From a virus, in IMG/VR virus record IMGVR_UViG_3300047160_003189, positions 1,411-65,410 of that record: a stretch of DNA of 64,000 nt; one strand, 5' to 3'. Made by a program: the position numbers and the translations under genes. The notes under the pieces were generated by a model, which searched no databases, was not told the origin of the DNA, and saw nothing but the letters and a program-made list of their open reading frames with translations. Numbering within the stretch: the first letter of the stretch is position 1; each line of letters opens with the position of its first letter. Shown here in pieces: positions 7,717-59,682 of this stretch.

Positions 7717-8616
7717 GTGCTTATCGATGATCTACTCAACAACCCCATGGTCGCCAAGACTTTCGGCGCTACTTGGGGGCAACTGCAATCTGATCTACAG
7801 AACTCGCAGAAGTTCGTCATCAGCAAGGAGATCGCCGAGGTCGCCGACGAGCTTTCTACTGACGAGAGCCAAGCCGAGAAAGTACTTCAGCATTGTCGGT
7901 TGCCGTTCCCGTTGGTCTGGGCGGAAGTAGTGCATCAAGATCGCCCCCACTACCTTAACGCCGAACGTCCTCCGGCAGCTCATGAGAAGGTGCCGGTGCG
8001 CGTCGGCGTTTTACTTCGTGGAATTGCAGACACCAAGGGGACGCAATTCCGAGCCAGCCTATTCTGGAACTACCCAGATGAGAAGATGGCTATTTGTAGT
8101 ATGATCGACATGCTTATCGATGTAACTAAAGGGGTGGACGGGAGCGTATTCATGCGCCCCTGTCCCTACTGGTACGATGCCGCCATGCTTATACTACAAG
8201 ACCATGGGCAGGACAGGCTCGCCAAGCTCATCGAGTGCTCGAAAGGCGACTGGCCCGGTGAGGTTCCCTTCTGGGCTTCTATACTTGCGCTGGTCAACTC
8301 GCGCAATGCGATAGAGTTGAAGATGGTAGATAATACTCTGTGGAACAGGAAGAGAGCCAAGCGAGGTCAGAAGCCGTTCGTTGACTACCGTGTCTGTCAC
8401 TTGCGCGTGCCGAAAGCCCTGCGCAATACTATAGGTGTTGTCGGCAACGAGCCGGGCGGCAAGAAGGCGTTTCACTACGTCAGCGGTCACTTCAAGGTCA
8501 GGAAGACCGGCATCTACTGGTGGCAGCCGCATTCGCGAGGCGACATCTCCTTGGGTGTAGTTCACCGCAAGCATACTATAGTGGAGGGAGCTGATGCCCC
8601 GCGTGAGGATCGGTAG
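7717..8616 (+). CDS. Conserved phage hypothetical protein
   Basis: Likely GTG start at 7717; C-terminal HYVSGHFKVRKTGIYWWQPHSRG basic His/Trp motif. Confidence 0.75.
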   Translation: MLIDDLLNNPMVAKTFGATWGQLQSDLQNSQKFVISKEIAEVADELSTDESQAEKVLQHCRLPFPLVWAEVVHQDRPHYLNAERPPAAHEKVPVRVGVLLRGIADTKGTQFRASLFWNYPDEKMAICSMIDMLIDVTKGVDGSVFMRPCPYWYDAAMLILQDHGQDRLAKLIECSKGDWPGEVPFWASILALVNSRNAIELKMVDNTLWNRKRAKRGQKPFVDYRVCHLRVPKALRNTIGVVGNEPGGKKAFHYVSGHFKVRKTGIYWWQPHSRGDISLGVVHRKHTIVEGADAPREDR

Positions 8617-8797
8617 AGTACGGATCAACAAGAGGGTCCGCATCAAACAACACTACTCTCCGTCTCAGTGGCAAGCTCTCTCGGAGAAGACCGATAGACT
8701 ACTCGAGGAAAGACTACAGGCATGGCGCGATGCTCACCCCTACCCAGAGCATCTAGGTATGAACCCGCACCAGCTCGTAAAGAAAGGAAAGAAGTAA
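8594..8797 (+). CDS. Small protein with triple RVRI N-terminus
   Basis: MPRVRIGRVRINKRVRIK; RBS GGAGGGAG; coupled to the next gene. Confidence 0.65.
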   Translation: MPRVRIGRVRINKRVRIKQHYSPSQWQALSEKTDRLLEERLQAWRDAHPYPEHLGMNPHQLVKKGKK

Positions 8798-9971: not shown

Positions 9972-10046
9972 TCCCGGTTAGTAGTCGAGCCATGTTGCCC
10001 ACTCGACTACTTCTATTGGAGGGCAACTTGTTAGGAGAATACGACT

Positions 10047-10730: not shown

Positions 10731-10752
10731 GTGTAGCCTAACGGTCAGCGTT

Positions 10753-10814: not shown

Positions 10815-11576
10815 ATGTTCCGCAAAGAACAGCTCAGCCACGACGTTACTATATATCTCGCCGACTGTGAGCTAGTCCTGGGGCTTCATGCGAACAAGGT
10901 CGATGCTGTACTAACCGATCCGCCCTACGGTATAGCCGAACAGTTCAAGACCGCGCCGACCTTCAACAAGAAGCGTATGATACGCAACGGCATCGATCCC
11001 AGCGAAGTAATAGACTTGCGCAATTCCTGGGACAGCAAGCCCGACCTTCGCCTTATGTATAAGCTGGTAAAGATGGCCGATGAGGTCATCATCTGGGGCG
11101 GCAACTACTTTGCTCTACCTCCCTCGCGTTGCTGGTTCGTCTGGAACAAGCCCAGACGTAACTTCTCGCTTGGTGATGCAGAGCTGGCCTGGACTAACCT
11201 CAACTCAGTAATCAGGACGTTCGACGGGGACTGGCGCGGCAAGGACGAGCTGATCTTCGGCGAGCATCCTACCCAGAAGCCGGTCGATCTGATGCGCTGG
11301 TGTATCAGTAGAATAGACGGCCACATTATACTGGACCCGTTCATGGGAGCCGGCACTACTGGCGTTGCCGCCGTCAGCATGGGGAGAGGCTTCGTCGGCA
11401 TCGAGAAGGAGCCTAAGTACTTTGAGATCGCCCTGCGCCGGATCGAGAACGCCGTCACCACTCCCCGGTTTATACTAGAGAAGCCTAAGCAACGTAGGCC
11501 GGCGAAGCAGCCGACCTTCTTCCCGAAGTCTACTATAGCAACCAAACGAGTAAGGATAAGTGAGGGACAACGATGA
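10815..11576 (+). CDS. DNA methyltransferase, N6-adenine/N4-cytosine, beta class
   Basis: TDPPYG catalytic motif precedes HPTQKP and [13 protein letters not shown]-binding motif. Confidence 0.92.
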
Positions 11577-12652
11577 CTAGAGTAAAACTGGACAGCAAGC
11601 CGGGCACCGTTACTTTGCCGCGCCAGGACTTTCTGAGTAGGCTTGAGCTGGTGGAGCCGGCCCTGTCGGACAACAGCGCCTTGCCGATCCTGTCCAACAT
11701 AGTATTCAACAAGACCAGCGTCCTAGCCTACAACGATCTGATCGCAATAGAGGTTCCGTTCGATACTGGTATAGTTGGCGCGGTAGATGGTAAGCTTCTC
11801 ATCAACTTGCTCAAGGCGTCGAGAGCCAAGACAGTAGACTTGCTGGTGGACGACGGGTGTCTTACCATCAAGGCGGCTACTGCTAAGCTCAAGCTGCCGG
11901 TGCTGGACGAGAAGTCTTTCGTATTCAAGATGCCGGAACCCCGAGGAGCCTCGCGAATACTATTCGTGGAGAAGATCGCCGGCCCGGTCGAGCACTGCTT
12001 ACGCTCGATCTCCAAGGATGCGGCCATAGTCGAGCAAAGCGGCGTTACTATGGTATTCGACAAGCAGGGAATAGGGCTATACTCTACAAACGCGCAAAGC
12101 CTCTCCCTGGCCAACGTGAACATGACCGGCAACACCGATCTGCGGATAGCCCTGCCGGCTCCCTTCTGCAAACAACTACTTGGTCTGGCAATCGATGGAG
12201 CCAAGCTGCATGTCTGCAAAGATTACGTGTTGATGACTGCGGGCAACGCCAAGCTGTTCTCTCGGCTTATACTGGTAGACCAGGGCAAGGAGATCAACTA
12301 CCAGAAGGTCATCGACAGCAATATACCAAAGGGCATGAAGCCGGCTCTTCGGCCCAAGACCCTCGACTTGGTAGTAAAGCGGGCCGAGGTCGTGGCCGGC
12401 AAGGAAGGCAGGACGACGATCACCGTGGAACACGGCAAGATGAAGTTCTATACTGCATCAGGTGGCGGCGAGGTCGTAGACTATCTGGAAGCCGACAAGG
12501 CTCAGCCAGACGTAGCCATCTCGGTCCAGCCGAGATATCTTGCGGATACCAACGACTTCAAGTTCATGACAGTAATCAATAGCTGCGTGATCTTCGCCGA
12601 CGACAACAACCGCAACATCTACATGGCTGCAAGCTCTTCGGTGAAATCATGA
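11573..12652 (+). CDS. dnaN: DNA polymerase III beta-type sliding clamp
   Basis: 359 aa; [31 protein letters not shown]...YQKVI match beta-clamp patterns. Confidence 0.8.
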
Positions 12653-13187: not shown

Positions 13188-15713
13188 ATGTCTTTCGCCG
13201 GCCTAAACCTACAAAAGGTCAACAAGGTACGAACCCCTATACAGTACTCAGCGGAGCTGACGGCTAAAGGCTGCGCCGTCTGCCCGCTCAAGTCAGTAGA
13301 GCCTAAGCTCGAACCGACCGGCTCACCCGATCCGGTCATCTACATTATCGGCGAGGCACCGGGCGAGGAAGAGGCTCGCCAGGGAGTACAGTTTATCGGA
13401 TTGTCCGGTCAACTACTCAGGCAGCGCATTCCGCAAGACTGGCTCCCGTTTATACGTTGGAACAACTGCATCCGCTCACGCCCACCCGGCAACCGTGATC
13501 CTGATCCGGTAGAGCTGGCCTGTTGCCGGCCAAGTATAGTAGAAGACATCGAGCGCAGCAAGCCGAGAGCTATCTTCGGCTTCGGCAACGTGCCGCTCAA
13601 CTGGGCTCTCGGCGTTACTGGTATAACCGACTGGAACGGACGCAGGGCACCAGTAAAGATAGGCAATCATACTTGTTGGTACTATGCCTTCCTCCATCCC
13701 GCGGGAATACTGCGGGAGAACAGTGACCGCACCATCCACCCCGGCACTGACTACCACTCGGACAAGGAGTTTGCCTTTGCCTTCGCCTTACAACGAGCTT
13801 TCGAAGAGGTCGAGCATCTGCCCGATCCTATAGTAGACAACGAAGCAGTCGCCAAGGAGGGAGTTGTAGTATTGCGCAAGCCTTCCGAGATCATCAGCGT
13901 TATCGGAAGAGCTTGGAAGCAAACCAGCGTCGGACTGGACTACGAGACGAACGGCTTGCGACCGATGGCGGAAGGCGCGAAGATACTCAGTATAGGCATG
14001 TCCTATCGGCAAGCTCACTACTCTTGGCCGATGCATCACAAGGACGCTGGTTATACCAAGAACGACCTCAGTTGTATCGAAGAGGCTTTCGAGGAGTGGC
14101 TGCATAACAGTAAATGTCGGAAGATCGCCCACAACGCAGCTTTCGAGCAAGAGTGGAGCGGTCACTTCTACGGTTACGACTGCATCAACGATACTTGGGA
14201 GGACACGCAGTCACAAGCCTTCGTGCTCGACGTGCGCCAGGGAGTGATGTCCCTCGACCTGTTGTGCAACTTATACTTTGGGATCAAGGTAAAGTCTTTG
14301 TCGAACCTCGACCGCAAGCGCATGGAAGACTACTCGCTAGACGAGATATTGCCGTATAATGCCATCGATGCAAAGTATTGCAACATGCTGTTCACCGAGC
14401 AAACCGCCGAGCTGTTCAAGCAGGGTCTGGGCGAAGTCTACAAGCAACACATGCGGCGGGTGTCGGCGCTTACTCTCACGCAGCTCAAGGGGGTGCCGAT
14501 CTCGCAGAAGGCCAACGCCAGCCTTCTCGCCAAGTATGAAGGTAGAATAAAGCAACTCGACGCGCAGCTAGCCGCCGATCCCGACATCATCAAGTACAAC
14601 AAGATCAAGCCGAAGACGTTCCGCCCGACCTCGCCGGCTGATACAGTATTCTTGTTCAACAAAGTAATTGGCGGCTATGGCTTGAGCAATGCCGATGTCG
14701 AGGCATTGAACGGAGTAGATCATCCGCTGGTCGAGCCGATTATACAACATAGGAAGGCCAGCAAGGTTGTCTCTACTTACCTGAAACCGTTCACGACCGG
14801 CGCACCGACAATGTATCCTGACGGCAAGGCGCATCCGAGCTACCCGACAACCAGGGTTATTACTAGCAGGACATCCGCCGCTGATCCCAACATCCAGAAC
14901 CAGAACAAGCGCGACCTCGAAAGCAAGGAAGTCCGCTCACAAGTAGTTGCTCCTCTCGGCGACATCATCGTGTCAGTAGACTATGCCAGCATCCAGGCTC
15001 GTAACGTGGCTTGGGAAAGTAAAGACCCGAGCTTGGTGCAGGCTTTCATCGATCACTACGACATTCATCAGGATTGGATGGAGCGGCTAGTAAAACTATA
15101 TCCGAGCTGGATCAAGGAAGGAGTGCGGGCACTGTCCGACAAGAAGCTGAAAGGATCGTATCGGCACAAGGCGAAGAACAAGTTCGTATTCCCGTCATTC
15201 TTCGGGGCGGCTCCATCCTCGATAGCCTCGCATGGTTACTTGAATATCCCGATCAATACTGCCTACGACTTGCAGAACCAGCTATGGTCGAAGTTCGCCG
15301 GGATCAAGCGATGGCAGGATCGCATCAGGAATGACTTCTACTTAAACGGTTACGTTACCGGGTTGAGCGGCTATCGGCGACCGGCACCTACCGCTTATAC
15401 TGAAATAGTCAACTCGCCGATCCAGGCTGACGAGGCGAAGATTGTGATGGAAGCACTAGCTAGGTTGTCGGAGCGTCACATCTGGGACTTGCAACCGATA
15501 CTCGAGGTCCACGATGACATTACTTTCTGCTTCAGCAAGAAGAAGCTAGACTACTATCTACCGACAATATTACAGGACATGCTGCTAGTAGAATACGACT
15601 GGATCATCACTCCGGTGGCGGTTGAGGTATCTATCGGGCCGAACTGGCACGAGCTGGAAGAGATTGGTAAGTTTGAGAGCACTTCTGATGGAGGGTATCG
15701 TGAATACAAGTAA
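13188..15713 (+). CDS. Family A DNA polymerase with N-terminal uracil-DNA-glycosylase domain and 3'-5' exonuclease
   Basis: CAVCPL, IIGEAPG, NCIRSRPPGNRDP, HPAGILR (family-4 UDG); LDYETNG, HNAAFE, YNAID (Exo I-III); DYASIQAR, RHKAKNKFVF, VHDD (PolA motifs). Confidence 0.92.
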   Translation: MSFAGLNLQKVNKVRTPIQYSAELTAKGCAVCPLKSVEPKLEPTGSPDPVIYIIGEAPGEEEARQGVQFIGLSGQLLRQRIPQDWLPFIRWNNCIRSRPPGNRDPDPVELACCRPSIVEDIERSKPRAIFGFGNVPLNWALGVTGITDWNGRRAPVKIGNHTCWYYAFLHPAGILRENSDRTIHPGTDYHSDKEFAFAFALQRAFEEVEHLPDPIVDNEAVAKEGVVVLRKPSEIISVIGRAWKQTSVGLDYETNGLRPMAEGAKILSIGMSYRQAHYSWPMHHKDAGYTKNDLSCIEEAFEEWLHNSKCRKIAHNAAFEQEWSGHFYGYDCINDTWEDTQSQAFVLDVRQGVMSLDLLCNLYFGIKVKSLSNLDRKRMEDYSLDEILPYNAIDAKYCNMLFTEQTAELFKQGLGEVYKQHMRRVSALTLTQLKGVPISQKANASLLAKYEGRIKQLDAQLAADPDIIKYNKIKPKTFRPTSPADTVFLFNKVIGGYGLSNADVEALNGVDHPLVEPIIQHRKASKVVSTYLKPFTTGAPTMYPDGKAHPSYPTTRVITSRTSAADPNIQNQNKRDLESKEVRSQVVAPLGDIIVSVDYASIQARNVAWESKDPSLVQAFIDHYDIHQDWMERLVKLYPSWIKEGVRALSDKKLKGSYRHKAKNKFVFPSFFGAAPSSIASHGYLNIPINTAYDLQNQLWSKFAGIKRWQDRIRNDFYLNGYVTGLSGYRRPAPTAYTEIVNSPIQADEAKIVMEALARLSERHIWDLQPILEVHDDITFCFSKKKLDYYLPTILQDMLLVEYDWIITPVAVEVSIGPNWHELEEIGKFESTSDGGYREYK

Positions 15714-16071
15714 TCGCTGGCCTATGCGTCTCTACGACAAGAACCGGCCCAAGAACGGCATTGGACAACTACTCATGCAAGACGGTAACATCGTACCGAG
15801 CTTCAATCTGGACTTCAGCCCCAACGATAGCAACGTGAGGCTGACGGCTTGGCTGCAATCGAAGGGCAGTGGCAAGTACTCTTATCGACCTTACTACAAG
15901 ACCATGGACATAGCCAGCGTAAAGACTTGGATGCTCGACTTCATTACTGATCCAGAGAAAGCCATCCTCGAGTATTTCGGGTATAGCGTGATGGAAGGAG
16001 AGCCGGCCAAGCCGAGGGAGCGGGTGAGGATCGGCAACGTAGTTTCTATCGGAAGAGTGAGGATCAAGTAA
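15700..16071 (+). CDS. Hypothetical protein with two C-terminal RVRI motifs
   Basis: GTG start after RBS GGAGGG; ends RERVRIGNVVSIGRVRIK. Confidence 0.7.
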   Translation: MNTSNRWPMRLYDKNRPKNGIGQLLMQDGNIVPSFNLDFSPNDSNVRLTAWLQSKGSGKYSYRPYYKTMDIASVKTWMLDFITDPEKAILEYFGYSVMEGEPAKPRERVRIGNVVSIGRVRIK

Positions 16072-17109: not shown

Positions 17110-17757
17110 ATGACCATGGCTACGACCAAAGCCCGCGTTTCGCGGAAGACACCCGCCCCGACTGCCAAGACGAAGCAGGCGACTACGGCGGCCCCGAAGA
17201 CGAGGACGAAAGTCCAAGTCAAGCCTACCGCCACCGAGGCGGCCCCCAAGCGGGGAGCTACTCGGCAGGCGGCACCCGCCACCCCCGCCAAGGGAAGGGT
17301 TCGCACTACTGCCCCGGTCGCCCAAGAGCGCGAGAAGGCAGTGAGGCGCTCCCATATCGAAGCCGCTGGCGATTACCTCACCGACGCTACCCCCAAGGGC
17401 AAGATCGGCGACTTGATCTCGGCGCTTCACAAGAAGGCGATGACGCTCGATGACATCCAAGACTTTTTGGATGTCGCCCGCAACGCCGCTTCTGCTTCCC
17501 TCTGGCACGTCAAGTGGAAGTACGGTTTTCAGGATATCGTCAAGGGCAAGAACCGCGACGGTAAAACTACTTGGAAGCTGGCCAGCTTGACGCGGGGGAT
17601 ACAGGGGACCAACGGAGCGAAGCCCGCCAAGGGACGCGCCAAGGTCCAGCCGGCTACGCCCGCTCCCGCTGCTACTCGCCAGCGGACGAAGGCGGCACCG
17701 GCAACCCCCGCCCCGGTTACGCCGGCCAAGCGGGTTCGCCAGCGGGTGTCGGCATAA
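17110..17757 (+). CDS. Histone-H1-like basic protein with central winged-helix-like domain
   Basis: Ala/Lys/Thr/Pro-rich arms flank a DUF3489-like segment (KIGDLISALHKKAMTLDDIQDFL...WHVKWKYGF); RBS GAGAGGGAC. Confidence 0.7.
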   Translation: MTMATTKARVSRKTPAPTAKTKQATTAAPKTRTKVQVKPTATEAAPKRGATRQAAPATPAKGRVRTTAPVAQEREKAVRRSHIEAAGDYLTDATPKGKIGDLISALHKKAMTLDDIQDFLDVARNAASASLWHVKWKYGFQDIVKGKNRDGKTTWKLASLTRGIQGTNGAKPAKGRAKVQPATPAPAATRQRTKAAPATPAPVTPAKRVRQRVSA

Positions 17758-17994: not shown

Positions 17995-18017
17995 AGTCAA
18001 CAGAGAGGGACTACAAA

Positions 18018-18275
18018 ATGAGTAAGGCACTCAAGAAGCAAAGCCGCACTAATCGTTGGATGGAAGCTGCCTCTAAGGCAGTATCCGCCCTCGAAGAGCT
18101 TGTTGAACTTCAGGAAGAATACTCCGAATGGTTCGACAACATGAATGAGAACTTGCAGAACGGCGCGACTGGCGAGAAGCTGCAAGCCCTCATCGACCTC
18201 GACCTGTCCTCTGCGCTCGATACTGCGCAAGAGGCGGAAGGAGCCGAGTTGCCTCTCGGCTTCGGACGCGACTGA
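18018..18275 (+). CDS. Hypothetical acidic helical early protein
   Basis: RBS GAGAGGGACTAC downstream of hammerhead 1; 85 aa. Confidence 0.8.
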   Translation: MSKALKKQSRTNRWMEAASKAVSALEELVELQEEYSEWFDNMNENLQNGATGEKLQALIDLDLSSALDTAQEAEGAELPLGFGRD

Positions 18276-18286
18276 TCGGGGAGTAA

Positions 18287-18348
18287 GGCCGAAAGGGGCG
18301 GGGAGTAATCCCCGTCTCTCTGACCGTGATGCGGTCACTGACGAGGCC
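18287..18348 (+). ncRNA. Type II hammerhead ribozyme 2
   Basis: GGCC-GAAA-GGGGCGGGGA(GTAA)TCCCCGTCTC-TC-TGACCG(TGATG)CGGTCA-CTGACGA-GGCC; canonical core; CUC cleavage after 18320. Confidence 0.9.
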
Positions 18349-18373
18349 AGTTGTTCTCAAGAGAGGGACTACC

Positions 18374-18709
18374 ATGGACTATCCTCATTACTTGGACGAT
18401 AATGATGAGATCGTCACGTTACCTTACACTTGGGAGATTTGCTCCCATTGTAGGGGACACGGCAAGTCGAGCGCCTATCTCGGAGCCTTCACGCAAAGCG
18501 AGATGGATGAGATGGGACCGGACTTCCGAGAGGACTACATGTCGGGCGGCTACGACAAGCCGTGCGATGTGTGCGACGGCACCGGGAAGGTGCCGGTGAT
18601 CGATGAGGCGCGCTGCAAGCCTGATGACCTCGCACGCTACCGCAAGGATTGCGAAGACGAGGAAGAGTATCAGGCTATGTGTGCGGCCGAGCGGCGCATG
18701 GGGTGTTGA
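18374..18709 (+). CDS. Hypothetical protein with CxxCxGxG zinc-finger-like motifs
   Basis: CSHCRGHG and CDVCDGTG; RBS GAGAGGGACTAC. Confidence 0.8.
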   Translation: MDYPHYLDDNDEIVTLPYTWEICSHCRGHGKSSAYLGAFTQSEMDEMGPDFREDYMSGGYDKPCDVCDGTGKVPVIDEARCKPDDLARYRKDCEDEEEYQAMCAAERRMGC

Positions 18710-18710
18710 G

Positions 18711-18953
18711 ATGATCTTCAAGAGCATCGAAGACTACTCCCGCTGCAAGGTCTGCGGATCGAAGCTGCCCGCTCCTATCCGCGCCTTCGCTGTTCGCAAA
18801 CTACAACCGTCTTGTTGCGGTCATGCCTGTTACCGGCGCGACATCATCAAGCGTTTCGCCTGTTGCGAGGATGCCGAGGTCATGGAGTGCGTTTGCATGT
18901 ATGCTTTCAAGTGCAAGACGCATGGTACTATGCATATCGGGACACATGACTAG
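18711..18953 (+). CDS. Cys-rich small protein
   Basis: CKVC, CCGHAC, CCEDA, CVC, CKTHG. Confidence 0.7.
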   Translation: MIFKSIEDYSRCKVCGSKLPAPIRAFAVRKLQPSCCGHACYRRDIIKRFACCEDAEVMECVCMYAFKCKTHGTMHIGTHD

Positions 18954-18955
18954 GA

Positions 18956-19159
18956 GTGACTATGCAGACACGCTTTCCCAAAGACTACTACATCGTTGAT
19001 GGCGATGTAGTCCGCACCATAGAGGCGTTGATGAACCGCCTCTACAACGATCTCACCGGGCCGATGCGCGGTGATGAGATGCGCGACTGGGCGAACACCC
19101 TGTACGCGAAACTTCGAAAGGTCGATGAGTACGACCCCAAGGCCGAAACCGGGGAGTGA
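18956..19159 (+). CDS. Hypothetical protein
   Basis: 67 aa, RBS AGGAG; its 3' end overlaps hammerhead 3. Confidence 0.7.
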   Translation: MTMQTRFPKDYYIVDGDVVRTIEALMNRLYNDLTGPMRGDEMRDWANTLYAKLRKVDEYDPKAETGE

Positions 19160-19197
19160 TCCCCGGTCTACTCGTCAGGCGAGTACTGAAGATGGCC
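19141..19197 (+). ncRNA. Type II hammerhead ribozyme 3
   Basis: GGCC-GAAA-CCGGGGA(GTGA)TCCCCGG-TC-TACTCG(TCAGG)CGAGTA-CTGAAGA-T-GGCC; GUC cleavage after 19168. Confidence 0.85.
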
Positions 19198-19223
19198 AGA
19201 CTGCACATCAGAGAGGGACTACT

Positions 19224-19796
19224 ATGATCTATGAAATCGCGAAGGCCGATGCGGTCGAGCGGGCGCAGAAGACACAGAAGAATGTGGACATCTGCTACTA
19301 CCGTGGCGTCTCACCCCATAACTACTTCATCAAGGACGTCGACCAGCCGCTGCCAGAGGACGCTATCCACGTTTCTACTGCGCACTGCAACGGCATCGTC
19401 GTCAGCGAAGTCGGCGACGGATCGGACGACGAGGCGGTGATGGAGTACGTAGAGGAGGAGGAGCCGAAGCCGGATTACTACTCGGTCGCCATCCACTTCG
19501 TTGATCGTTGCTACGGGGGACCGGAGGAAGGCGGCTGGTGGTATAATGCCGGGCATCCTATCACCGAAGTCCTCAAGGGCTACGACAACATGACACCGGA
19601 GGACAGCTTACCGAAATGCTTCCTCACGGAGGACGAGGCGCAAACCTACTGCGATCTACTCAACAACAAGCTGGCGGCTGGCCCGAACAAGGGGCGGCGC
19701 TCGATCTACTCCATGGCCAGCGAAGGCCGCTACCAAGCAATGGTGCAAGCCGGCTGGCCGCACGCATGGCCAAACCCGGCACCGCACTACGAATAA
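19224..19796 (+). CDS. Hypothetical early protein
   Basis: RBS GAGAGGGACTAC; contains DRCYGGPEEGGWWY and SEGRY motifs; may be a two-module fusion. Confidence 0.8.
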   Translation: MIYEIAKADAVERAQKTQKNVDICYYRGVSPHNYFIKDVDQPLPEDAIHVSTAHCNGIVVSEVGDGSDDEAVMEYVEEEEPKPDYYSVAIHFVDRCYGGPEEGGWWYNAGHPITEVLKGYDNMTPEDSLPKCFLTEDEAQTYCDLLNNKLAAGPNKGRRSIYSMASEGRYQAMVQAGWPHAWPNPAPHYE

Positions 19797-22266: not shown

Positions 22267-24558
22267 TTAATGACGCTGGGTCGTAGCCAGCGCCGAGCGA
22301 CCGCTAAAGTTGTAGTTGGCGCTAGAAGCATTGAGGACGTAGCCGCCCAGCGTCACGTAGTGTATTTGTTCAGAAAGTCCCTGAACAGCGTAGGTAGCAA
22401 AGAACGGCGTGTTGCTGGCTGGCTGGCTGGCGTAAGCAGTAGACCATGTTACCGACCAACTGCCGCTGGTTGCACTGTCGAAGCCGAGGATGAAGCCGCC
22501 GCCAGTACCTGCCGTGGACACTGCCGCCGACGCGAAGCCGGTCGCCTGCCCCGTGGCGAACATGCTCTCGTTGTTCCAGCATAGTATCTGACAGAAGTTC
22601 GTCATCATGCCGACGGCGCTCGTAGAAGACACGGTGAAAGTCGAGCCTTCCTGATCCGAGCAAGTCTCGCCCCAGTCGTTATACCACGAGCGCACGAAAC
22701 GGAACGACGCTGACGAAGCGAAGCCGCCTTGCGGCGTATAGTAGTAAACCATGCCGATCAAGCTGCGAGTACTATCGACACCTGGACCAGCGATCTGCCT
22801 GACCTCCGTACCGACGTTGCCAGCCGTCACGTCACGCTGGTGATGATTGGGACCGAGATGAGCACTATCGTAGAAGTCGCAAGTCAAGGTGCCAGCGTTG
22901 TTGAACAAGAACACCCAGTAGTAGTTGGCAGACAGTAGAGTGCCGCCCGGTGAACCGTTCAGATAGGTCGCGGTATCGTGGCAAGCAATACTAGTAGTAG
23001 GTATCTGGTAGATCGTCCCGTTGATACGGATCATGTCTCCGTTGAAAGGAGTGAAGAGAAGCGTATTGCCGCTGTTGTAGATTAGCTGCCCGCTAGTCGT
23101 CGGGCCAGCATAGCCAAGGTTGCCCGCGCCGGTAACAGTACCAGTCAGCGGATAATTGCCGCCGACACTAGTAACAGTGCCGGAAGTCGCGACACCGTTC
23201 TTGTAGATATTGGTGGCGACGTTTATAGTACCAGCACCCATGTCGCCGCCAGTGCCGCCCGAAGGCGAACCTATAGTAATGCCACCCGAAGGTTGCTGGC
23301 ATAGACTGTCGGCGGCACTAATACTACCAGTCGGCGTCGAGCCGATGCAAGTCTTGGTACCGTGCGCGCCGCCCGTCCAGTTCTGCGTTGCCCTCGCAGC
23401 TATGTAGCCGCCGGTACCTATACCCGAACCGTCATAGGCCAGAAACTGGTAGCTGCCGAGCATGTCGCCGCTGATCACCGCCGTCCGTGACCCGTTGGTG
23501 CCGTCGTAACGGATCAAGTTGTAGACCGGAATGGCACCGAAAGTATTGATCTCCATGCCTGTCTGTGTAGTATCCGGCCCGGTGATCTGGAAGAGATCAC
23601 CCGTCTGCAAGCCCGGTGCAGCAACAGTATTGAGGTTTATCAACTGGCTCTTGGTAAAAGTATTGGTGGCGCTAGCCAAGGCGGCGCTGTTGGAATTGGC
23701 TACCCAACGCCACTGCGTCAACGCCGCATTGTAAGTATAGCTGACTTGTCGGCCAGCGGCGATGACATCAGTAGTTCCATTGGGCATCAAAGTACCGACA
23801 CCGGCATTGATAGTAATGGAAGCCGAACCGTCCACATTGTCTACTACAATGCGAGTGCCCTCGACCATGCCCGGTACTCCGGTCGAGGGGAAAGTATCGG
23901 TCATCGCGCTACCGGCATTGGAGCGGCGCGTCAGCTTGAACAGGTCAGAGGTAGTAAAAGTCTTGCTGGCTCCGGTCGATACTTGTACTGGCTGCACCAT
24001 CTCCAAGCCGGCGAGCGGGCCAGTATAAGATGACGGCAGAAGAACGGAGACACCGTTGTTGAGGTTGATAGTAGTAGTGCTGCCGCCACTACTCGAGGTC
24101 AGCGGCAGAGATGCCGCGACATTAGTACCAGGTGATGGCTGAATGGGACCGACTGTACCTCCGTTGACTTGCACGAACAGACCGGCGCTAGTAACCCACA
24201 TATCGCCGTTCTGCGGCTGCGAAGGTACATTGCCGGGCGCGAGGTTGAAGCCGGCATTTTGTACGTAACCACTCCACGTCACCAGCCGCCCGGTCATCGA
24301 GCCGCCGGCACTGTTGAGCGGACCATAGCCAAGTACATCCTGCTTGGATGCCCAAGCCTGGTTCCACTGCCCAGGCGTCGGTACGTAACCTTGTGTCCAA
24401 GGTGGCTGCGGCACCGACTGGGCGTAAACTACTTCCTTTTGCTTGACGTGCGGCAGCTTCTTCAAGTACGGCTGGGTCAGCCGGAAGAATAGCGGAGTAT
24501 CGGCATGAGCCGCGTTGGCGAAGCCGAGTGCCAACAGTGCAAGTAACAGGCGCTTCAT
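22267..24558 (-). CDS. Tail-fibre-like protein with N-terminal Sec-type signal peptide
   Basis: MKRLLLALLALGFANAAHA leader; Gly/Thr/Ser-rich beta body; shares a module with the 24867 fibre. Confidence 0.7.
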   Translation of the reverse strand: MKRLLLALLALGFANAAHADTPLFFRLTQPYLKKLPHVKQKEVVYAQSVPQPPWTQGYVPTPGQWNQAWASKQDVLGYGPLNSAGGSMTGRLVTWSGYVQNAGFNLAPGNVPSQPQNGDMWVTSAGLFVQVNGGTVGPIQPSPGTNVAASLPLTSSSGGSTTTINLNNGVSVLLPSSYTGPLAGLEMVQPVQVSTGASKTFTTSDLFKLTRRSNAGSAMTDTFPSTGVPGMVEGTRIVVDNVDGSASITINAGVGTLMPNGTTDVIAAGRQVSYTYNAALTQWRWVANSNSAALASATNTFTKSQLINLNTVAAPGLQTGDLFQITGPDTTQTGMEINTFGAIPVYNLIRYDGTNGSRTAVISGDMLGSYQFLAYDGSGIGTGGYIAARATQNWTGGAHGTKTCIGSTPTGSISAADSLCQQPSGGITIGSPSGGTGGDMGAGTINVATNIYKNGVATSGTVTSVGGNYPLTGTVTGAGNLGYAGPTTSGQLIYNSGNTLLFTPFNGDMIRINGTIYQIPTTSIACHDTATYLNGSPGGTLLSANYYWVFLFNNAGTLTCDFYDSAHLGPNHHQRDVTAGNVGTEVRQIAGPGVDSTRSLIGMVYYYTPQGGFASSASFRFVRSWYNDWGETCSDQEGSTFTVSSTSAVGMMTNFCQILCWNNESMFATGQATGFASAAVSTAGTGGGFILGFDSATSGSWSVTWSTAYASQPASNTPFFATYAVQGLSEQIHYVTLGGYVLNASSANYNFSGRSALATTQRH

Positions 24559-24857
24559 GGATTGATCCTTACCTTGGGGGAACCACGCCTATCAAGTAGT
24601 TCCTTCAGCTTCTCCTTGGGATCACCTTCGAAAGGAGGGTGGATGCCCAACGCCATCAGGTGGTAAGTAGTATCGAAAGCCTCATCCGCGCCTTCCTCCT
24701 CCTTCGGCTGGTCGTCTGCCTTGGTGAAGCCGGCTTCGATGAAGGCGTCGGCTACACTGCCGGGGACGCTCAGTGTACCGTCTTTGTCGGGATAGGTAAG
24801 TAGTTTGCCGAAGCCGATCTCGTAGCAACCTTCCGGTGCTTTGAGCTTTACTAACAT
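24555..24857 (-). CDS. Hypothetical protein, possibly fibre assembly
   Basis: 100 aa between the two fibre genes; ends PKVRINP. Confidence 0.7.
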   Translation of the reverse strand: MLVKLKAPEGCYEIGFGKLLTYPDKDGTLSVPGSVADAFIEAGFTKADDQPKEEEGADEAFDTTYHLMALGIHPPFEGDPKEKLKELLDRRGSPKVRINP

Positions 24858-43189: not shown

Positions 43190-43741
43190 CTACTCCTCCC
43201 CTGGCCGCTCGCCTTCGTGCAGCGGCGTAAGATTTGGATTGTTGAGTAGAGGGTCGATGCGCTTGTCAGCCAATACTTCAACGCGCCGGCCTTTGTCGTC
43301 CTTCTCCTCGACCATACGTACATCGAGCGGCTCCAGCCCAGACAGCTCTTTACGATGCTCCTTGGCATGAGCTACAGTATCGTAGCGGTCCTCGTAAGCA
43401 TAGACGAGGCCGTTCTTGACGATTTCAGTATTGACGTTCTGGCGCAGCCACTCGGCGAAGAAGTCTCGATCTACTCCTTCGGTCAGCCCGACGCCATGTA
43501 TTACATCGGGCGAGGAGTGCCCCCAAGGTATCGACGGGCCGCGCAACCGCACCATGTCGCCGGTAGGAACAGCGATAGTAAACTTATGCTTGCCGCCGCC
43601 GTACAAGTTCTCGACTTGCTCCTCGAACTTGTAGAGACGAAGCTCAAGACCATTCGGCAACTTGCAGGCTACAGTAACTTTGGTGGACAGCGATTGCTCC
43701 GCGATGCGGACCCGCTTATGTGTCCCTGTTCTGGTAGTCAT
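43190..43741 (-). CDS. Conserved hypothetical protein downstream of the capsid gene
   Basis: VTVACKLPNGLELRL...GLTEGVDRDFFAEWL...SGLEPLD. Confidence 0.8.
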   Translation of the reverse strand: MTTRTGTHKRVRIAEQSLSTKVTVACKLPNGLELRLYKFEEQVENLYGGGKHKFTIAVPTGDMVRLRGPSIPWGHSSPDVIHGVGLTEGVDRDFFAEWLRQNVNTEIVKNGLVYAYEDRYDTVAHAKEHRKELSGLEPLDVRMVEEKDDKGRRVEVLADKRIDPLLNNPNLTPLHEGERPGEE

Positions 43742-54221: not shown

Positions 54222-55291
54222 GCATGTACTCCACTGACTTGTTGCCAATGCCCGAATATCTGCGGGGCGATGTAGCTGGACAATGCTACCGCTGGGGTGT
54301 TGCCCAGCTTCTCCGCTACTACTTTGGCGACTGCCTTCACCGCTCGTTTATACTCGGTGATGCTCTTCGGCACCGGGGCGCTATCTACCAAGTCCTGCGC
54401 CGTCTGTGTTGCCAGTAGTGTGCGGAAGTCTTTTGTCTTGAAGTGGGGATCGAGGGTCTTCAAGTACTGACTGAGGCTTTGCCTAGTAACGTCTGGAAAC
54501 AATTCCTCGTCGTCCTTGTTCTTGCGATCCAGCAACATGCGGCCGGCTGAGCCGCCGACCTCCATGTCTATACTTACTCCCTTCTTGCCGACGAAGTGTA
54601 GTCTTGCCTTGTTGCCGTCCCTGGTTACGTGCTTGCCGAGAAGAGTGGTCGCGCCGTAGGCTTTCACCGCTCCTCCACGATCCGCATCGTCGCCGGGACG
54701 TATGCCGGTCTGCGAGATCAAATGTAGTATATCGGCGTGCTGCGCAGTCGTATCGTTGTTGCTCAGCCGGTTGTGGTTGTTCTGTTGTAGTATAGAGCCG
54801 ATCTTCTTCTCGAGACTTACTATGCGGCGGAACTTGTTGGCCGCCTGGGAAGCCTTGAAGGCGGGATTATAGATATACTGTTTTCGTCCCTTGGCATCGA
54901 TGCCGGTAACGTAGAGGTTCGACTTGGGGTTATGGTTCACCAGTACATTCTTCCAAGCCGGAGGTATCTTTAAGTCTCGTATATGATCTGGACGATGCGC
55001 TCCTAGCTCCGTCCATCTACCAGCTTTGTCGCGCGGCTCGTTGGGGTCGTAGGCATCTGACGTAATCATCCCCTCTTCGGTGTCAGCCCACCAGGGGCGT
55101 TTACTTTGGTCGCGGCTATCCTGAGCCATTACTACGTTCTTCGGGTCGCGCTTCAGAAACACTACTTGCCCATCATCGGGCCAAGTGATCTTGACCAGCG
55201 TAGCATCGTCCTTATCGACCAGCTCGAACTTGTCGTTGAACCAAGCTACTACTGCGGTCTTGCCTTGTACTTCCATTTTCTCGATGGTCAT
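54218..55291 (-). CDS. DNA topoisomerase IB (bacterial/poxviral type) with N-terminal leader
   Basis: IPPAW, GIDAKGRKQYIY, TGIRPG (R), FVGKKG (K), KDFRT (K, R), LGNTPAVALSSYI (catalytic Y). Confidence 0.9.
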   Translation of the reverse strand: MTIEKMEVQGKTAVVAWFNDKFELVDKDDATLVKITWPDDGQVVFLKRDPKNVVMAQDSRDQSKRPWWADTEEGMITSDAYDPNEPRDKAGRWTELGAHRPDHIRDLKIPPAWKNVLVNHNPKSNLYVTGIDAKGRKQYIYNPAFKASQAANKFRRIVSLEKKIGSILQQNNHNRLSNNDTTAQHADILHLISQTGIRPGDDADRGGAVKAYGATTLLGKHVTRDGNKARLHFVGKKGVSIDMEVGGSAGRMLLDRKNKDDEELFPDVTRQSLSQYLKTLDPHFKTKDFRTLLATQTAQDLVDSAPVPKSITEYKRAVKAVAKVVAEKLGNTPAVALSSYIAPQIFGHWQQVSGVHA

Positions 55292-58200
55292 GACGGCTTA
55301 TGCGCCCTTACTTCATCCATGGTCTTCGAGCCCTCCACGCCGGTGATATGGAATTTTACTCCCTGCGAGGCGAGACGCCTGAGTTGCGATTTGGTAGGTA
55401 TAAGTCCAGTACTCTCGCTTTCGCTGGCCAGCGGGAAGCTGATGACCGGGCCGGTATCCTTCCACGAATTGAATACTACGTTCTCAAGCGGGTTGTTCTC
55501 AAGGTTCGACATATCTACGTTGTCGAACAGGTCTTTGTGAATACCCTGATCCGCACCTATCCAGTACAAATTGCCGGCGGCATCCATGACGCCACGCAAT
55601 GCGCCTTCGCCCCACTCGTCATGCGCCCAACTCTTTACTGTGTCAGGGTCGCCAATACGCTTGAGAGCCGCTTCGCTCATAGCTACTAGTTCCTTGGCCG
55701 AAGGGTTCTTGTACATGTTGACCGTCTGGCCAGTATTGGCCACGATCTTCTGCGGTGGAGTAAAAGGCTGTACTTTATCGCCTTCCTCGGGGACTTCTAC
55801 TTTATGCCCGTCTGGACCTATAGTAAATCTGCCGCGCCAGTTCTCGATAGGCAATGCGCCGGTAGACTGGAAGCCGGGATTTACTGCCATGAACAGATCA
55901 TGCCAAGCCTTAGTACCTTTCTCGATCTCCTCATCCATCTTGTTGAACCGCTCGTCGTCTGTACCAGTAACTCCTTCCCAAGCCTTCTTCTCGCCGAGTG
56001 GCGGGCCTTTATGTACTGGAAAGCCGGTCTTGGGATTTACGTCCATCCCAGGCTCGGGACCGGAGCGGCCATTCTCATAGAATACTCTGGCCATCTCCGC
56101 CAGGGTTTCGTGCATGGCCCTGTCAGTAGACATCTCGCCCTTCCACCACAAATCCCAGTACTTCTTGCTATAGTTGGTAACGCCATCGGCGCGGGCGAAG
56201 GTCTGCGGGTTGATCTGGCTCACCAGCTTATTGTACTGTTGATAGATCGGATACTTCTCGGCATAGGGCGGCTTCAGCTCTCCGGTGTCGGCGCGCATCA
56301 GCTCACGGCCCGGTACGTTCATGTTCTCGTTGATGACCTTCTGATACTCCGCTTCATACTTGTCGATCCAGTCTTGGAAGCGGGTATGCTCGATCTCATG
56401 CGCCGTGACGCCGGCTATGGTGTCGCGGCTGAGCTGCCGCAAGTATAAAGTAATATTGCCCTTCTCGGGACCGCTGATCTGAGCCGCACCTGCGTAGTGC
56501 ATGACCTCATCGCCCAGCTTGAAAGTACGATCCTTAGTCTCGAAGTGTACTTTATTGATGTCGAAAGGTATATCCTTGAGGACATGCTCGACAATAGTAC
56601 GCGCATCCTTGAGGCTGGCCCTGGTCATCATAGCAGTATCACTAACCGGGAACAGGCCAATGTAGCTCTGACCATTCCAAGTCGTCTTGCGCAGCTCCAT
56701 GCCCAGCTTGTCGATCTCGTCTTCGAGAGTGTAGTGCAAGCCCTGCGCCGGGAAGTAGTTCTTGAGAAGGTCGAGGCTATCGAGGTCTTTGCGCGGCATG
56801 TAGCCATTGAAGTTGTTGAGTAGAGCCCTGACCGGACCTCGGGTTTTCTTAGTATAGCCGAGAGCTACCATCACATCGTCGGAGTGCAAGCCTCGGTTCT
56901 TGGCGTGCTCACTGTTGGAAAAGTCACTACCGCGCTCCGGCTCCTTGTCGGACTTCTCTTCAGTAATCTCTCTGTACTTCTGAGGAGCGCCGGCTTCGCC
57001 CAGCTCGCCGCCTACCTTCTTAGTGAATTGTCCGCCCCCTGTTTGGCCAAAAGGGACACGAGGGTGGTCCTCCTCGCGCCACTCGTCTGTACTGAGGAAT
57101 ATCTCTGGATCGAAGCTGTCGGCGGCGGTAGCGCCCTTATGGCCGGCTCCTCCGGTGAACTTGTCGGCTTCCTCGAGTAGTTGCACAATATCCATGTCAA
57201 CTCTGGCGACCCTCATAGTATTGTCGCCCAGCTTGTTGTTCTCGGCGTCGAGTGCGATCATCGCGCCCCAGTGGTGATGACCGTCGAGTATGTAGTTGTC
57301 CCGCGACACTACTACTCTGCGCTGACCTTTACTCGGGTCGAGCCTGATCTTGTCGGCGTTGGCCTTGATCTTGGCAGCTACTATCTGATCCTGGGTTGCA
57401 CGCATATACTGCGGCTTCTCCTCGTCTTTATCTACATCGATGCCGCGCTCCTGTAGAGACTTCAGGAAAGCCTTGGTCTGTTCTTTGGTAAGTTGCGGCA
57501 TCTTGATGCGAGGTATTCCCTTAGCCTCGGCACAGAACAGGTTGGTGCCGGCGACCGATACGTTGCAGAGATTGAAGTCGGGAGCCTTGCCGCCAAGCTT
57601 CACCATCTCGGTCGTTACTTTGGCGAGCTTGTCAACCAAAGTAGAAACCTCACGAGGCTGGTGCAGTTCTACTTTCTTATTCTCGTAGAGAGCCCTGACT
57701 GCATCGTCCACGTTGGTAGTATAGATTTTGCCCTGGAAGAGCTTGGCGCTCTTCGAGTATCCGTGACCGGGGTGCTCGACGTTCTGGCCTTCCCACATAT
57801 GCTTCATACGTCCAGCGGCGAGCTGTTCCTTGCGCAGCTTTTGCTGTCCTTCGGGAGTATTGTAGTTGCCGGGACCGAACTCGCCCTTATTGGTAGGCTG
57901 GCCGCGATGTATTTTACTCTCATCGAAGTGCCGCTTATCCTCGGCAAGTATATCTGCGTCCTTGGCGACCGGCTTACCTTTCGGCTTCATCCTGGCGAGC
58001 TGTTGCTGGCCCTGTTGCTTCTTGTTCTCTAGTTGTAGTTTATTCTTGTGGTCTTGCTGCATCAGCTCTTTCTTCCGCTGATGCTCCTTGTCCATACGTT
58101 GACCCTCGGGCATCTCTTGCCCCTGGTCTTGCTCGTTACCTTGCTGTTCCTGTCCAGGCTCGCCCGGCTGGCCGCCCATCTGCGGCTGTAGTAATTCTGG

Positions 58201-59682
58201 CACGTCCTCGATATCGAGCCCTTCGTATGGCGTGTCGGGATCGTTGGCTATACGCTTGCGCTCCTCTTCTGGATGCAAGACGCCAGTATTGATAAGTCCT
58301 TCGCCAGTAGTAGCGTCGATCTGCCGCTTCTGCGACTTCTCCAATTCGGTCATCTCGTAGAGTTCGACGTATTCGTAAGTAATATCGTCGTCGATCTGCC
58401 CGAACCTGTTGAGCTGCAAGAAGCCAAGTATAGTGTGCAAGTGATCGTTGTACATCGCCTCTTGCTCGGAATGGATGAGATCGTAGAAAACCCTGATCTC
58501 CCACTCGGACGTAGCATTGAGGCCGGAAGGGCTGATGCCAGTGTACTTAACCAGCGGAATGCCGCACGAGGCGCATATCTGTTCGAGCGCCTGTACTTGC
58601 AGCTTGTCGAGGCCGCTTAGCGGAGTAGCCACGACAACGAAGTCTTCGCTTTCCATGTCCAATACTGCAAGGCCACGGTTGTCGCGAGTATTGTTGTAGA
58701 ACTCCATGCGCCTGAAGAGGTCTTCGCCGCCTTCCTTCAAGCCAGCCGACAGATCGGTCTTGATGCAAGATACTGCATAAGAGTGGATCATATCGCTGAC
58801 CGACTGGCGAGTACGCAGCCAGTTGTCTACATATGGCTTCGACATCTGACTTCTACTTAAGCCGCCGAAGCTGAAAGCCGGCTTGTAGATGTCGGGGACC
58901 GGGCGACCGATGAAGGTCAGCAACCGAGAGGCGTGCATGGGTCGCGACATGCAGTACCACTCTGTCGGGTTATACCAGTCGTCGGCAAGTGGATCGGTGG
59001 TATTATACTTGGTTGGCCAGCACCAGATCGGATCTACTGCCTTGAAGCCAAGTAGAGAGCCTGGCTTGAACTTCTTCAAGCTGACCTCGTTGCGACCGTC
59101 GCCGATGTCGGTAAGTAATTCCTTGGGGCTTTCGAGCTGCCCGGTGTCTATGTAGATGTGTGCCCTGCCAAAGTAGCCGTCCAATGCAGTCACATGCTGC
59201 ATGACCTCTTTTACTTTGAAGTTCTTGATATCGTCGTTGAGCATACTGATTTGCTCGGCCTTGGCTCCCTCGTCGCCTTTGGCCTTCAGGCGGATGAACT
59301 TGCGCGTCATCTCAGTAGCGAATATCTCGCTGATCCGTCTATACTCTGTGCGGAGCGCCAGCTCGGCAAGATACGGATAGCCGAGAAAAGTAGTTCCCTC
59401 GGCTATCATGCTCGACAGGTCAGTATTCGCCCAGCCGACCCCCGACAGCATGGCGTCGTCCATCGCCATAGTAGGATGCTGATTATACTTGGTGGGCTTC
59501 GGCCCGACGCCGGGAGGATGTAGTAACCTCGGAGTGAAGGGGTTCATCATCAGTCCAGGCTCGACAGGCTTGCGGCGCGAGCGGGCTACCATCTCTTGGG
59601 TGATCTTGATGGCGGGCTTGTTGATACGCACCCTGGCTTTGGGAGCGTTTATACGAACTCGCTTCTTGGGCATGTCGAGCAT
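55288..59682 (-). CDS. Portal protein (DUF1073-like) fused to about 900 aa of extra domains
   Basis: FLGYPYLAELA, YFGRAHIYID, HASRL, GGLSRSQ, IPLVKYTGISPSGLNATSE; extension has ILDGHHHW and AHEIEH motifs. Confidence 0.85.
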   Translation of the reverse strand: MLDMPKKRVRINAPKARVRINKPAIKITQEMVARSRRKPVEPGLMMNPFTPRLLHPPGVGPKPTKYNQHPTMAMDDAMLSGVGWANTDLSSMIAEGTTFLGYPYLAELALRTEYRRISEIFATEMTRKFIRLKAKGDEGAKAEQISMLNDDIKNFKVKEVMQHVTALDGYFGRAHIYIDTGQLESPKELLTDIGDGRNEVSLKKFKPGSLLGFKAVDPIWCWPTKYNTTDPLADDWYNPTEWYCMSRPMHASRLLTFIGRPVPDIYKPAFSFGGLSRSQMSKPYVDNWLRTRQSVSDMIHSYAVSCIKTDLSAGLKEGGEDLFRRMEFYNNTRDNRGLAVLDMESEDFVVVATPLSGLDKLQVQALEQICASCGIPLVKYTGISPSGLNATSEWEIRVFYDLIHSEQEAMYNDHLHTILGFLQLNRFGQIDDDITYEYVELYEMTELEKSQKRQIDATTGEGLINTGVLHPEEERKRIANDPDTPYEGLDIEDVPELLQPQMGGQPGEPGQEQQGNEQDQGQEMPEGQRMDKEHQRKKELMQQDHKNKLQLENKKQQGQQQLARMKPKGKPVAKDADILAEDKRHFDESKIHRGQPTNKGEFGPGNYNTPEGQQKLRKEQLAAGRMKHMWEGQNVEHPGHGYSKSAKLFQGKIYTTNVDDAVRALYENKKVELHQPREVSTLVDKLAKVTTEMVKLGGKAPDFNLCNVSVAGTNLFCAEAKGIPRIKMPQLTKEQTKAFLKSLQERGIDVDKDEEKPQYMRATQDQIVAAKIKANADKIRLDPSKGQRRVVVSRDNYILDGHHHWGAMIALDAENNKLGDNTMRVARVDMDIVQLLEEADKFTGGAGHKGATAADSFDPEIFLSTDEWREEDHPRVPFGQTGGGQFTKKVGGELGEAGAPQKYREITEEKSDKEPERGSDFSNSEHAKNRGLHSDDVMVALGYTKKTRGPVRALLNNFNGYMPRKDLDSLDLLKNYFPAQGLHYTLEDEIDKLGMELRKTTWNGQSYIGLFPVSDTAMMTRASLKDARTIVEHVLKDIPFDINKVHFETKDRTFKLGDEVMHYAGAAQISGPEKGNITLYLRQLSRDTIAGVTAHEIEHTRFQDWIDKYEAEYQKVINENMNVPGRELMRADTGELKPPYAEKYPIYQQYNKLVSQINPQTFARADGVTNYSKKYWDLWWKGEMSTDRAMHETLAEMARVFYENGRSGPEPGMDVNPKTGFPVHKGPPLGEKKAWEGVTGTDDERFNKMDEEIEKGTKAWHDLFMAVNPGFQSTGALPIENWRGRFTIGPDGHKVEVPEEGDKVQPFTPPQKIVANTGQTVNMYKNPSAKELVAMSEAALKRIGDPDTVKSWAHDEWGEGALRGVMDAAGNLYWIGADQGIHKDLFDNVDMSNLENNPLENVVFNSWKDTGPVISFPLASESESTGLIPTKSQLRRLASQGVKFHITGVEGSKTMDEVRAHKPS

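Follow-up and report, generated by a model that had tools for sequence, protein, structure and literature searches.

An RVRI peptide recurs at the termini of unrelated replication, recombination and virion proteins of a soil phage, and genome-specific variants of it occur in phages that share its replication module

What might lead a phage to place the same four residues, Arg-Val-Arg-Ile, at the ends of proteins as unlike one another as a DNA methyltransferase, a RecA-like recombinase and a portal? The question is raised by a 64,000-nucleotide stretch of DNA (the window), which comprises bases 1411-65410 of the 79,685-bp virus record IMGVR_UViG_3300047160_003189, a record of an uncultured soil phage that is estimated to be 97% complete. 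The original prediction, which was made from the letters of the window, described ten copies of [RK]VRI near the termini of six unrelated proteins and proposed that they constitute a phage-wide docking or address tag spanning replication and virion proteins. Each of the ten copies was found to be present, at its coordinates and in its coding frame, as were the near variants that had been named, i.e. MTRVKL in the β-clamp, KVRT in the polymerase, and RVRT and RVRQ in an H1-like protein. Our results reveal that the peptide (for brevity, the tag) is strongly enriched, is restricted to protein termini and is selected at the level of the protein; it recurs at the ends of orthologous proteins in related phages, in variants that are specific to the genome, and it is linked with the replication module.

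Across the whole genome, for which 96 proteins totalling 24,422 residues were called, RVRI is the commonest tetrapeptide, with 13 copies compared with 0.25-0.27 expected from two runs of within-protein shuffles, the maximum in any shuffle being 3. All 13 copies lie no more than 20 residues from a protein end, the 30-residue terminal zone holding 23% of all residues. When residues were shuffled only within the 30-residue terminal segments, 14 copies of [RK]VRI were observed compared with 0.24 expected; the proposal that the motif is enriched and terminally biased is thus borne out against composition-matched shuffles. The tag is present on at least 11 proteins of this phage, and on up to 15 when looser variants are included (Table 1); the carriers are mostly DNA-handling proteins.

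The claim that conservation is at the protein level is supported by codon usage, both Arg positions being encoded by CGN as well as AGR codons. Matches to RVRI in non-coding frames number three genome-wide (37836 on the + strand, 16496 on the - strand and genome position 601, the last overlapping a ribosome-binding site), roughly as many as chance would give, and the counts and positions of GATC and GGATC are ordinary. Selection is therefore on the peptide and not on the DNA, and a DNA-level signal is ruled out.

Table 1. Positions of the RVRI tag and its variants in this phage (window coordinates unless stated otherwise).
Peptide	Position	Strand	Place in the protein
RVRI, three in tandem	8600-8611, 8615-8626, 8633-8644	+	Residues 3, 8 and 14 of 67-residue protein (8594-8797)
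RVRI	11547-11558	+	5 residues before C-end of N6/N4 DNA methyltransferase (10815-11576)
RVRI, two	16021-16032, 16054-16065	+	C-end of 127-residue protein (15688-16071)
KVRI	24564-24575	-	2 residues before C-end of 100-residue protein (24555-24857), tail-fibre region
RVRI	43703-43714	-	Residue 10 of 183-residue protein (43190-43741); gene adjoins major capsid gene
RVRI, two	59623 and 59650 (59623-59661)	-	Residues 17 and 8 of 1464-residue portal fusion (55288-59682)
RVKL (variant)	11579-11590	+	Residue 3 of β-clamp (11573-12652), start MTRVKL
RVRV (variant)	63847-63858	-	Residue 11 of 209-residue protein (63259-63888)
RVRQ(RV) (variant)	17731-17742	+	4 residues from C-end of Lys/Ala/Pro-rich 215-residue protein (17110-17757)
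RVRI	outside window		N-end of small terminase, MRIRINEPRQRVRIK...
RVRI	outside window (gene L025:10301-11233)	-	N-end of RecA-like recombinase, MTRVRINN...
RVRI	outside window		Last four residues of PDDEXK nuclease, ...SKRVRI-stop
RVRI	outside window		C-end of 143-residue HTH-like protein, ...TRVRIREAA-stop
RTRI, RVRM, RVRV (variants)	gene L025:11803-12738, genome 76803-77738	-	C-terminal linker of gp32-like SSB (GRTRIT, GRVRMS, GRVRVN)

Where the tag is N-terminal, the assigned starts are backed by ribosome-binding sites, as with the GGAGG upstream of the start codon of the 67-residue protein, and in the case of the recombinase by its orthologues as well. A tandem layout of two units is common to the portal (RVRIN-APKA-RVRIN) and the small terminase (RIRIN-EPRQ-RVRIK), the two portal copies being followed by a third related unit, AIKIT. 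With respect to the small proteins, the 67-residue protein has no relative but itself in 5.8 billion clusters, neither the 127-residue protein, the gene for which sits between those for the polymerase and the clamp loader, nor the 215-residue protein has a family match, and the 100-residue protein has a weak match to phrog_26071. The other contigs found to carry the 183-residue protein are all short fragments, in which the encoded copy is identical.

In every carrier that has a Pfam or PHROG match, the tag lies outside it. The N6_N4_Mtase match of the methyltransferase ends at residue 207 of 253, so that the tag falls in a C-terminal appendage; the domain match of the portal begins at residue 64, that of the 183-residue protein (phrog_2085) at residue 20 and the family match of the recombinase at residue 19, and the RVKL of the clamp is located in the 13-residue N-terminal stretch before a DNA_pol3_beta match that begins at residue 14. 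In four relatives the β-clamp starts without the tag. An AlphaFold2 model of the recombinase, made with 60 homologues, has a mean confidence score (pLDDT) of 85.6; residues 1-11, with scores <50, are its sole long low-confidence stretch, and in this monomer the leader is disordered, with no docking on its own core. The equivalent model of the 67-residue protein is helical and of low confidence. Given that the tags lie outside the domain matches, and that the recombinase leader is predicted to be disordered, they are best regarded as flexible terminal appendages, often in tandem.

Two further features were observed close to the tags. Between the tag and the ATPase core of the recombinase, residues 10-17 form a nearly invariant GG-x-YF-x-x-P sequence, the resemblance of which in position to the FxxA polymerisation motif of RAD51/RadA suggests that these phage recombinases may polymerise in the manner of RadA. 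After its two RVRI copies, the portal sequence continues AIKITQEMVARS (window 59590-59622), and several portal homologues, P0180, P0223 and P0245 among them, have at their N terminus a similar [RK]-[IV]-x-[IV]-[TS] strand that leads into a helix-like stretch; its recurrence implies that the strand may be a conserved element of portals.

The tag is found well beyond this genome, as judged from related contigs, most of which are covered in part only. The recombinase clade numbers more than 1,400 homologues. Of 119 metagenomic orthologues of the recombinase (46-57% identity), 56 (~47%) have R-x-[RK]-[ILV] within 14 residues of the N terminus, compared with an internal background of 4.6%; examples of their N termini are MARVKLEE, MPRVKIEE, MERVRLNR and MARVRIRS. 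Portal homologues show a weaker enrichment: 11 of 149 have R-x-[RK]-[ILV] at the N terminus, the background being 2.6%. At C termini, the KRVRI-stop of the PDDEXK nuclease has as its counterparts RERIRLEPIKRKRIRL-stop in G003, an IMG/VR genome of 71.8 kb, and PRRRLKR-stop in the relative L031, and the RVRIREAA-stop of the HTH-like protein is paralleled by RKRLKKAA-stop in an HTH_17 protein of L031. The contigs around the recombinase orthologues contain the same module, comprising clamp, UDG-PolA, clamp loader, single-stranded DNA-binding protein (SSB), recombinase, PDDEXK and SbcCD, together with further terminal tags: SNF2 ends ...EGRVKL-stop, phrog_1069 proteins end ...ARVRV-stop or ...RRVRVEP-stop, SbcC ends ...RKRLRRA-stop and SSB tails have R-x-RVVEE and then an acidic run. 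Because the tags are at the same ends of the related phages' orthologues, the objection that the motif lacks conservation fails for the recombinase, the PDDEXK nuclease and the 143-residue HTH-like protein, but not for the 183-residue head protein, which is considered below. RVRI is thus the form taken in this phage of a looser R-x-[RK]-[ILV] terminal motif, which predates this phage. The looser motif is present in the N-terminal leader of phage RecA-like recombinases across a large clade and at the C termini of PDDEXK, HTH-like, phrog_1069, SNF2 and SbcC proteins in phages sharing the module.

Comparison of two genomes reveals with which genes the tag travels. G003 is related to this phage in its polymerase (40% identity), recombinase (45%), PDDEXK nuclease (42%) and SNF2 protein (45%), and has 12 terminal copies of R-x-R-[ILV] on 9 proteins, compared with 2.2 expected; the carriers include a DpdA-like DNA transglycosylase (MVKRIRLVDD), the recombinase (MVARERLK) and three small proteins ending RIRL, RVRI and RERL. 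G001, a complete 70-kb genome, has its capsid genes in common with this phage, to which it is the nearest on the basis of those genes (61% identity for the major capsid protein), and has 1 terminal tag compared with 1.4 expected, zero DNA patterns coding for RVRI in the genome and, by k-mer counts, no other repeated terminal peptide. The motif is conserved at the protein level, terminus-restricted, outside domain matches and present on unrelated proteins, which fits a docking or address tag, but it extends beyond this phage; likewise, replication and virion proteins both carry it here, but it follows the replication-recombination module and not the virion module.

The same contrast is apparent when terminal R-x-[RK]-[ILV] is counted and compared with 3000 shuffles within the 14-residue end segments. 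No shuffle reached the observed count for this phage (20 observed, 6.6 expected) or L031 (9 observed, 2.4 expected), and there was enrichment in G003 (15 observed, 6.2 expected, P = 0.001) and L028 (5 observed, 1.6 expected, P = 0.02), whereas the controls G001 (3 observed, 4.0 expected, P = 0.76) and Vibrio phage MAR10 (5 observed, 4.6 expected, P = 0.50) manifest none. The preferred spelling differs between genomes: at the final position of the tag, 14 of the 20 copies in this phage have Ile, and Leu is present in 10 of the 15 copies of G003 and in all 9 of L031, with Fisher tests on the difference between genomes giving P = 0.004 and 7e-5, a covariation that rests on three genomes.

Copies that agree within a genome but differ between genomes are the pattern expected of one partner with a co-evolving binding pocket. 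On the basis of the sequence comparisons, we lean modestly towards the proposal that the tag is a basic-hydrophobic terminal docking motif for one such partner, tied to the replication-recombination machinery, which in this phage is also present on packaging and virion proteins. The tag would dock its carriers on a common hub of that machinery, probably as an added β-strand in which the two Arg residues face one way and the two aliphatic residues the opposite way. Here it has also been gained by the small terminase, the portal, the head protein and the tail-region protein, such that DNA modification, recombination, junction resolution and packaging would be brought to the same replicating DNA.

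Of the candidates for the presumed partner, we rank the acidic tail of the SSB first, followed by the phage clamp, then the recombinase filament and lastly a host factor. The acidic tail of the SSB is chemically complementary to the tag, and the list of carriers resembles the SSB interactome. Terminal peptides are classically read by the clamp, the candidacy of which is weakened in that the polymerase is without the tag and the clamp of this phage itself has a variant. Since the recombinase has the ancestral copy, other proteins may copy its leader, as BRC repeats copy the motif of RAD51. We also consider as possible, though doubtful, a broader proposal in which this clade of phages uses a portable, co-evolving end label to gather recombination, DNA-modification and nuclease proteins (here with packaging and virion proteins) on one receptor, which could be an acidic, repeat-rich SSB tail that scaffolds a replication factory or condensate. 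As to the SSBs themselves, the gp32-like SSB of this phage has a weak match to PF08804, matches phrog_34306 and has a bacterial-type EDDDIPF tip after its tag-like repeats; those of relatives have long acidic or alternating acidic-basic repeats, e.g. the DDDDKPARRGR units in G003. A search of the proteome for an acidic-aliphatic repeat complementary to RVRI yielded nothing convincing, only a 63-residue protein ending DLDV..EVEV (genome 69459-69650, - strand); the complementarity of its acidic-aliphatic tail, ..YDLDVEEKSNEVEVTE, to an RVRI strand may be coincidence.

Several observations weigh against a single replication-linked docking partner. The tag is missing from the polymerase, clamp loader, helicase and primase, its presence on virion proteins is not easily reconciled with a replisome hub, and the SSB and the clamp, i.e. 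two of the candidates for that hub, carry tag-like copies themselves. The motif is absent from nine aligned orthologues of the 183-residue head protein (32-43% identity), and R-x-[RK]-[ILV] does not occur within the opening 14 residues of any of 16 homologues. Vibrio phage MAR10, which has a similar replication module, has 4 terminal tags compared with 1.4 expected (P = 0.055), which is no clear enrichment. The tags of L031 lie inside generally basic tails, such that part of the L031 signal could be plain DNA-binding basic ends. Finally, the gene calls come from a purpose-made, simple codon-usage caller, and overlap with ribosome-binding sites may have favoured AGG codons in C-terminal copies.

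Other explanations must account for the same placement and spelling. One is that an AAA+ unfoldase or protease, be it ClpX-like and of the host or the Clp-like ATPase of some relatives, grips its targets by the tag, which would act as a terminal degron or tether and so set the time at which the carriers are removed or remodelled; this would accord with the place of the tag within ~20 residues of a free end, as unfoldase engagement requires. Known ClpX signals resemble KRVRI-COOH, RVRIK-COOH and MTRVRI/MARVKL, and relatives encode ATPases near the module, these being a ~690-residue Clp-type AAA_2 ATPase in L028, L032 and L033 (at ~19-21 kb in each locus) and an AAA/AAA_lid_3 protein in L031 (L031:15464-17065). 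However, the likeness is loose and the consensus is not identical; a universal host receptor explains poorly why the preferred variant is genome-specific; and it would seem expensive for a phage to have its portal, terminase, SSB and recombinase degraded. The Clp-type ATPase is, moreover, absent from both this phage and G003, in spite of their many tags, which rules out a phage-encoded receptor of this type for these two, and we think an unfoldase handle improbable overall. We also regard it as unlikely that the tag binds nucleic acid directly, as an extended Arg-aliphatic strand, either single or paired as in the β-ribbon of ribbon-helix-helix proteins, and thereby fastens DNA-handling proteins to DNA or RNA. 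Nearly all of the carriers act on DNA, the R-V-R-I alternation puts both Arg residues on one face, the tandem copies with short turns in the portal and small terminase could form hairpins, and the L031 tags are in basic tails; generic DNA binding, however, does not require one exact tetrapeptide, and in this phage the enrichment of the looser class is very slight once RVRI is set aside (6 terminal copies compared with 2.4 expected, P = 0.03). Acidic residues directly follow the tag in many relatives (MARVKLEED, and RVVEE with its acidic run), and an aliphatic residue that varies between genomes points to a protein pocket. A ribbon-helix-helix strand in particular is ruled out, despite the alternation, in that half of the copies are at C termini, where they cannot precede the two helices, and there is no match to a family of this type; the model of the 67-residue protein, as noted, is of low confidence and helical.

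The presence of the tag on the portal, the head-region protein and the small terminase raises the possibility of a signal for loading into the procapsid or for ejection, analogous to the capsid-targeting sequence of T4 or to the cargo peptides of encapsulins, the shells of which have the phage capsid fold and the terminal cargo tags of which are known on either end. Most carriers are, however, replication or recombination enzymes, and the tags are kept in phages with different virion genes; the recombinase, PDDEXK nuclease, methyltransferase and small terminase have the tag, and the SSB and clamp have variants of it. The tag does not travel with the capsid genes, G001 having the capsid module and no tags above chance, whereas G003 has its 12 terminal copies together with the replication genes; a capsid-targeting role is thus very improbable. 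It is scarcely credible that the motif is functionless, i.e. a by-product of composition, of overlap with ribosome-binding sites or of mis-called starts. Three matches near gene ends (16054, 24564 and the non-coding match at genome 601) do coincide with AGGA-type ribosome-binding sites, 7-9 nucleotides before the next start, that at 16054 overlapping the site of the clamp-loader gene and that at 24564 the site of the next gene; such a by-product accounts for at most three copies. The majority of copies are encoded with CGN or are located in N termini, the recombinase orthologues confirm the N-terminal position, no shuffle came near the observed counts and the control genomes are without enrichment, so that this explanation is close to refuted.

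The gene content of the window is that of a contractile-tailed phage. A replication block on the + strand encodes a DnaB-like helicase, an SNF2 helicase, a primase, the N6/N4 methyltransferase, the β-clamp, a UDG-PolA polymerase and the clamp loader; a virion block on the - strand encodes the sheath, the major capsid protein, a prohead protease, the 1464-residue portal fusion and the large terminase. Past the right edge of the window are the small terminase, SbcCD, the PDDEXK nuclease, a RecA/UvsX-like recombinase and the gp32-like SSB ending EDDDIPF. No near relatives were found by megablast among 50,697 phage records, the closest capsid match in IMG/VR is 61% identical, and no relatives close enough for a conservation test or for analysis of dN/dS (the ratio of non-synonymous to synonymous substitution rates) were found. 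The relatives that share the module encode 7-deazaguanine pathway genes, namely QueF, GTP cyclohydrolase I and a DpdA-like protein. Many early genes (window 18000-19230 and other starts) have an unusually long ribosome-binding region, AGAGAGGGACTAC, directly before the start codon, and the commonest upstream hexamer is GAGGGA, present at 13 of 96 starts. At the left end of the genome, the last 60 bases of the record (79486-79685 region) recur from position 41, and bases 1-200 contain several imperfect direct repeats with a ~35-bp unit (GTGTAGAAGTTGAAGACTACAGTACAATACTAAT); these repeats could reflect terminal redundancy, or a packaging or origin region.

We found no description of an RVRI tag on phage proteins in the literature searched, the broader literature located being only general work on clamps, SSBs and T4. 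If one partner reads the tag, then a whole interaction network is exposed from sequence alone; this would reveal the way in which such a network gains clients and would provide a handle for finding its hub by covariation, as well as a portable tag for steering proteins to sites of phage replication. If the address-label proposal is true, the tag would be a bacterial-virus counterpart of eukaryotic localisation signals, with clients recruited by the evolution of four end residues. For annotation, a terminal R-x-[RK]-aliphatic sequence on a protein of unknown function in this group of phages suggests a link to replication-recombination.

Comparison with known peptide-mediated systems helps to define what is distinctive about the tag. 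Its placement, in a flexible stretch at an extreme end, is that of β-clamp-binding motifs, but the consensus of these (QL[SD]LF or QLxLxL) is not that of the tag, all copies of which are [RK]-V-R-I or R-x-[RK]-[ILV], and the motif is rejected on this basis; the N termini of the polymerases, MSFAGLNL here and MGFFF in relatives, look nearer to the QLxLF consensus than the tag does. The PCNA-interacting motif APIM, [KR]-[FYW]-[LIVA]-[LIVA]-[KR], which tethers repair proteins to the sliding clamp, is likewise a five-residue basic-hydrophobic motif that is at times at the extreme N terminus; it is ruled out because position 2 of the tag is Val, Ile, Glu, Lys or Arg, never aromatic, and because the clamp here is of the bacterial β type. 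The peptides recognised by ClpX, i.e. RRKKAI-COOH of MuA, LRVVK-COOH of SspB and the T-A-K-I/L N termini of lambda O and Dps, are likewise short and basic-aliphatic, function only close to a free N or C terminus, and are known on phage replication and transposition proteins, but their consensus is not identical to that of the tag, the variation of which between phage genomes is unexpected for a conserved host receptor. The BRC repeats of BRCA2 mimic FxxA, the polymerisation motif of RAD51, and there is a likeness in that the recombinase itself has the tag in a flexible leader just upstream of GG-x-YF-x-x-P while other proteins carry the same peptide; a difference is that the leader is predicted to be disordered in the AlphaFold2 monomer.

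The C-terminal tip of bacterial SSB, DDDIPF, is an interaction hub in which the tip is the peptide and the partners provide folded pockets. The SSB of this phage ends EDDDIPF, and the tag carriers (recombinase, nuclease, helicase-like and DNA-modifying proteins) resemble the SSB interactome; here, however, the partners would offer the peptide, and the SSBs of several relatives have acidic runs but no IPF tip. The tag itself does not conform to the type with an acidic run and a terminal hydrophobic or aromatic residue, represented by the SSB tip and the tails of T7 gp2.5 and gp4, the SSB being the only protein here with such a tail. The T4 gp43, gp33 and gp55 C-terminal tails dock on the gp45 clamp, the acidic C-terminal tails of T7 gp2.5 and gp4 dock on the polymerase, and T4 couples late transcription and packaging to its hub. 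In these phages a peptide common to several proteins is read by one component of the replication machinery, and here, too, a single short terminal peptide is found on unrelated proteins of one phage. The T4 and T7 peptides, however, wire a replisome through few proteins and are acidic-hydrophobic and always C-terminal, whereas the tag is basic-aliphatic, may be at either end, is often in tandem, is linked to the replication module and is on far more proteins, in this one phage extending from the recombinase to the small terminase and portal; the same label, with a spelling specific to the genome, is at orthologous ends in related uncultured phages.

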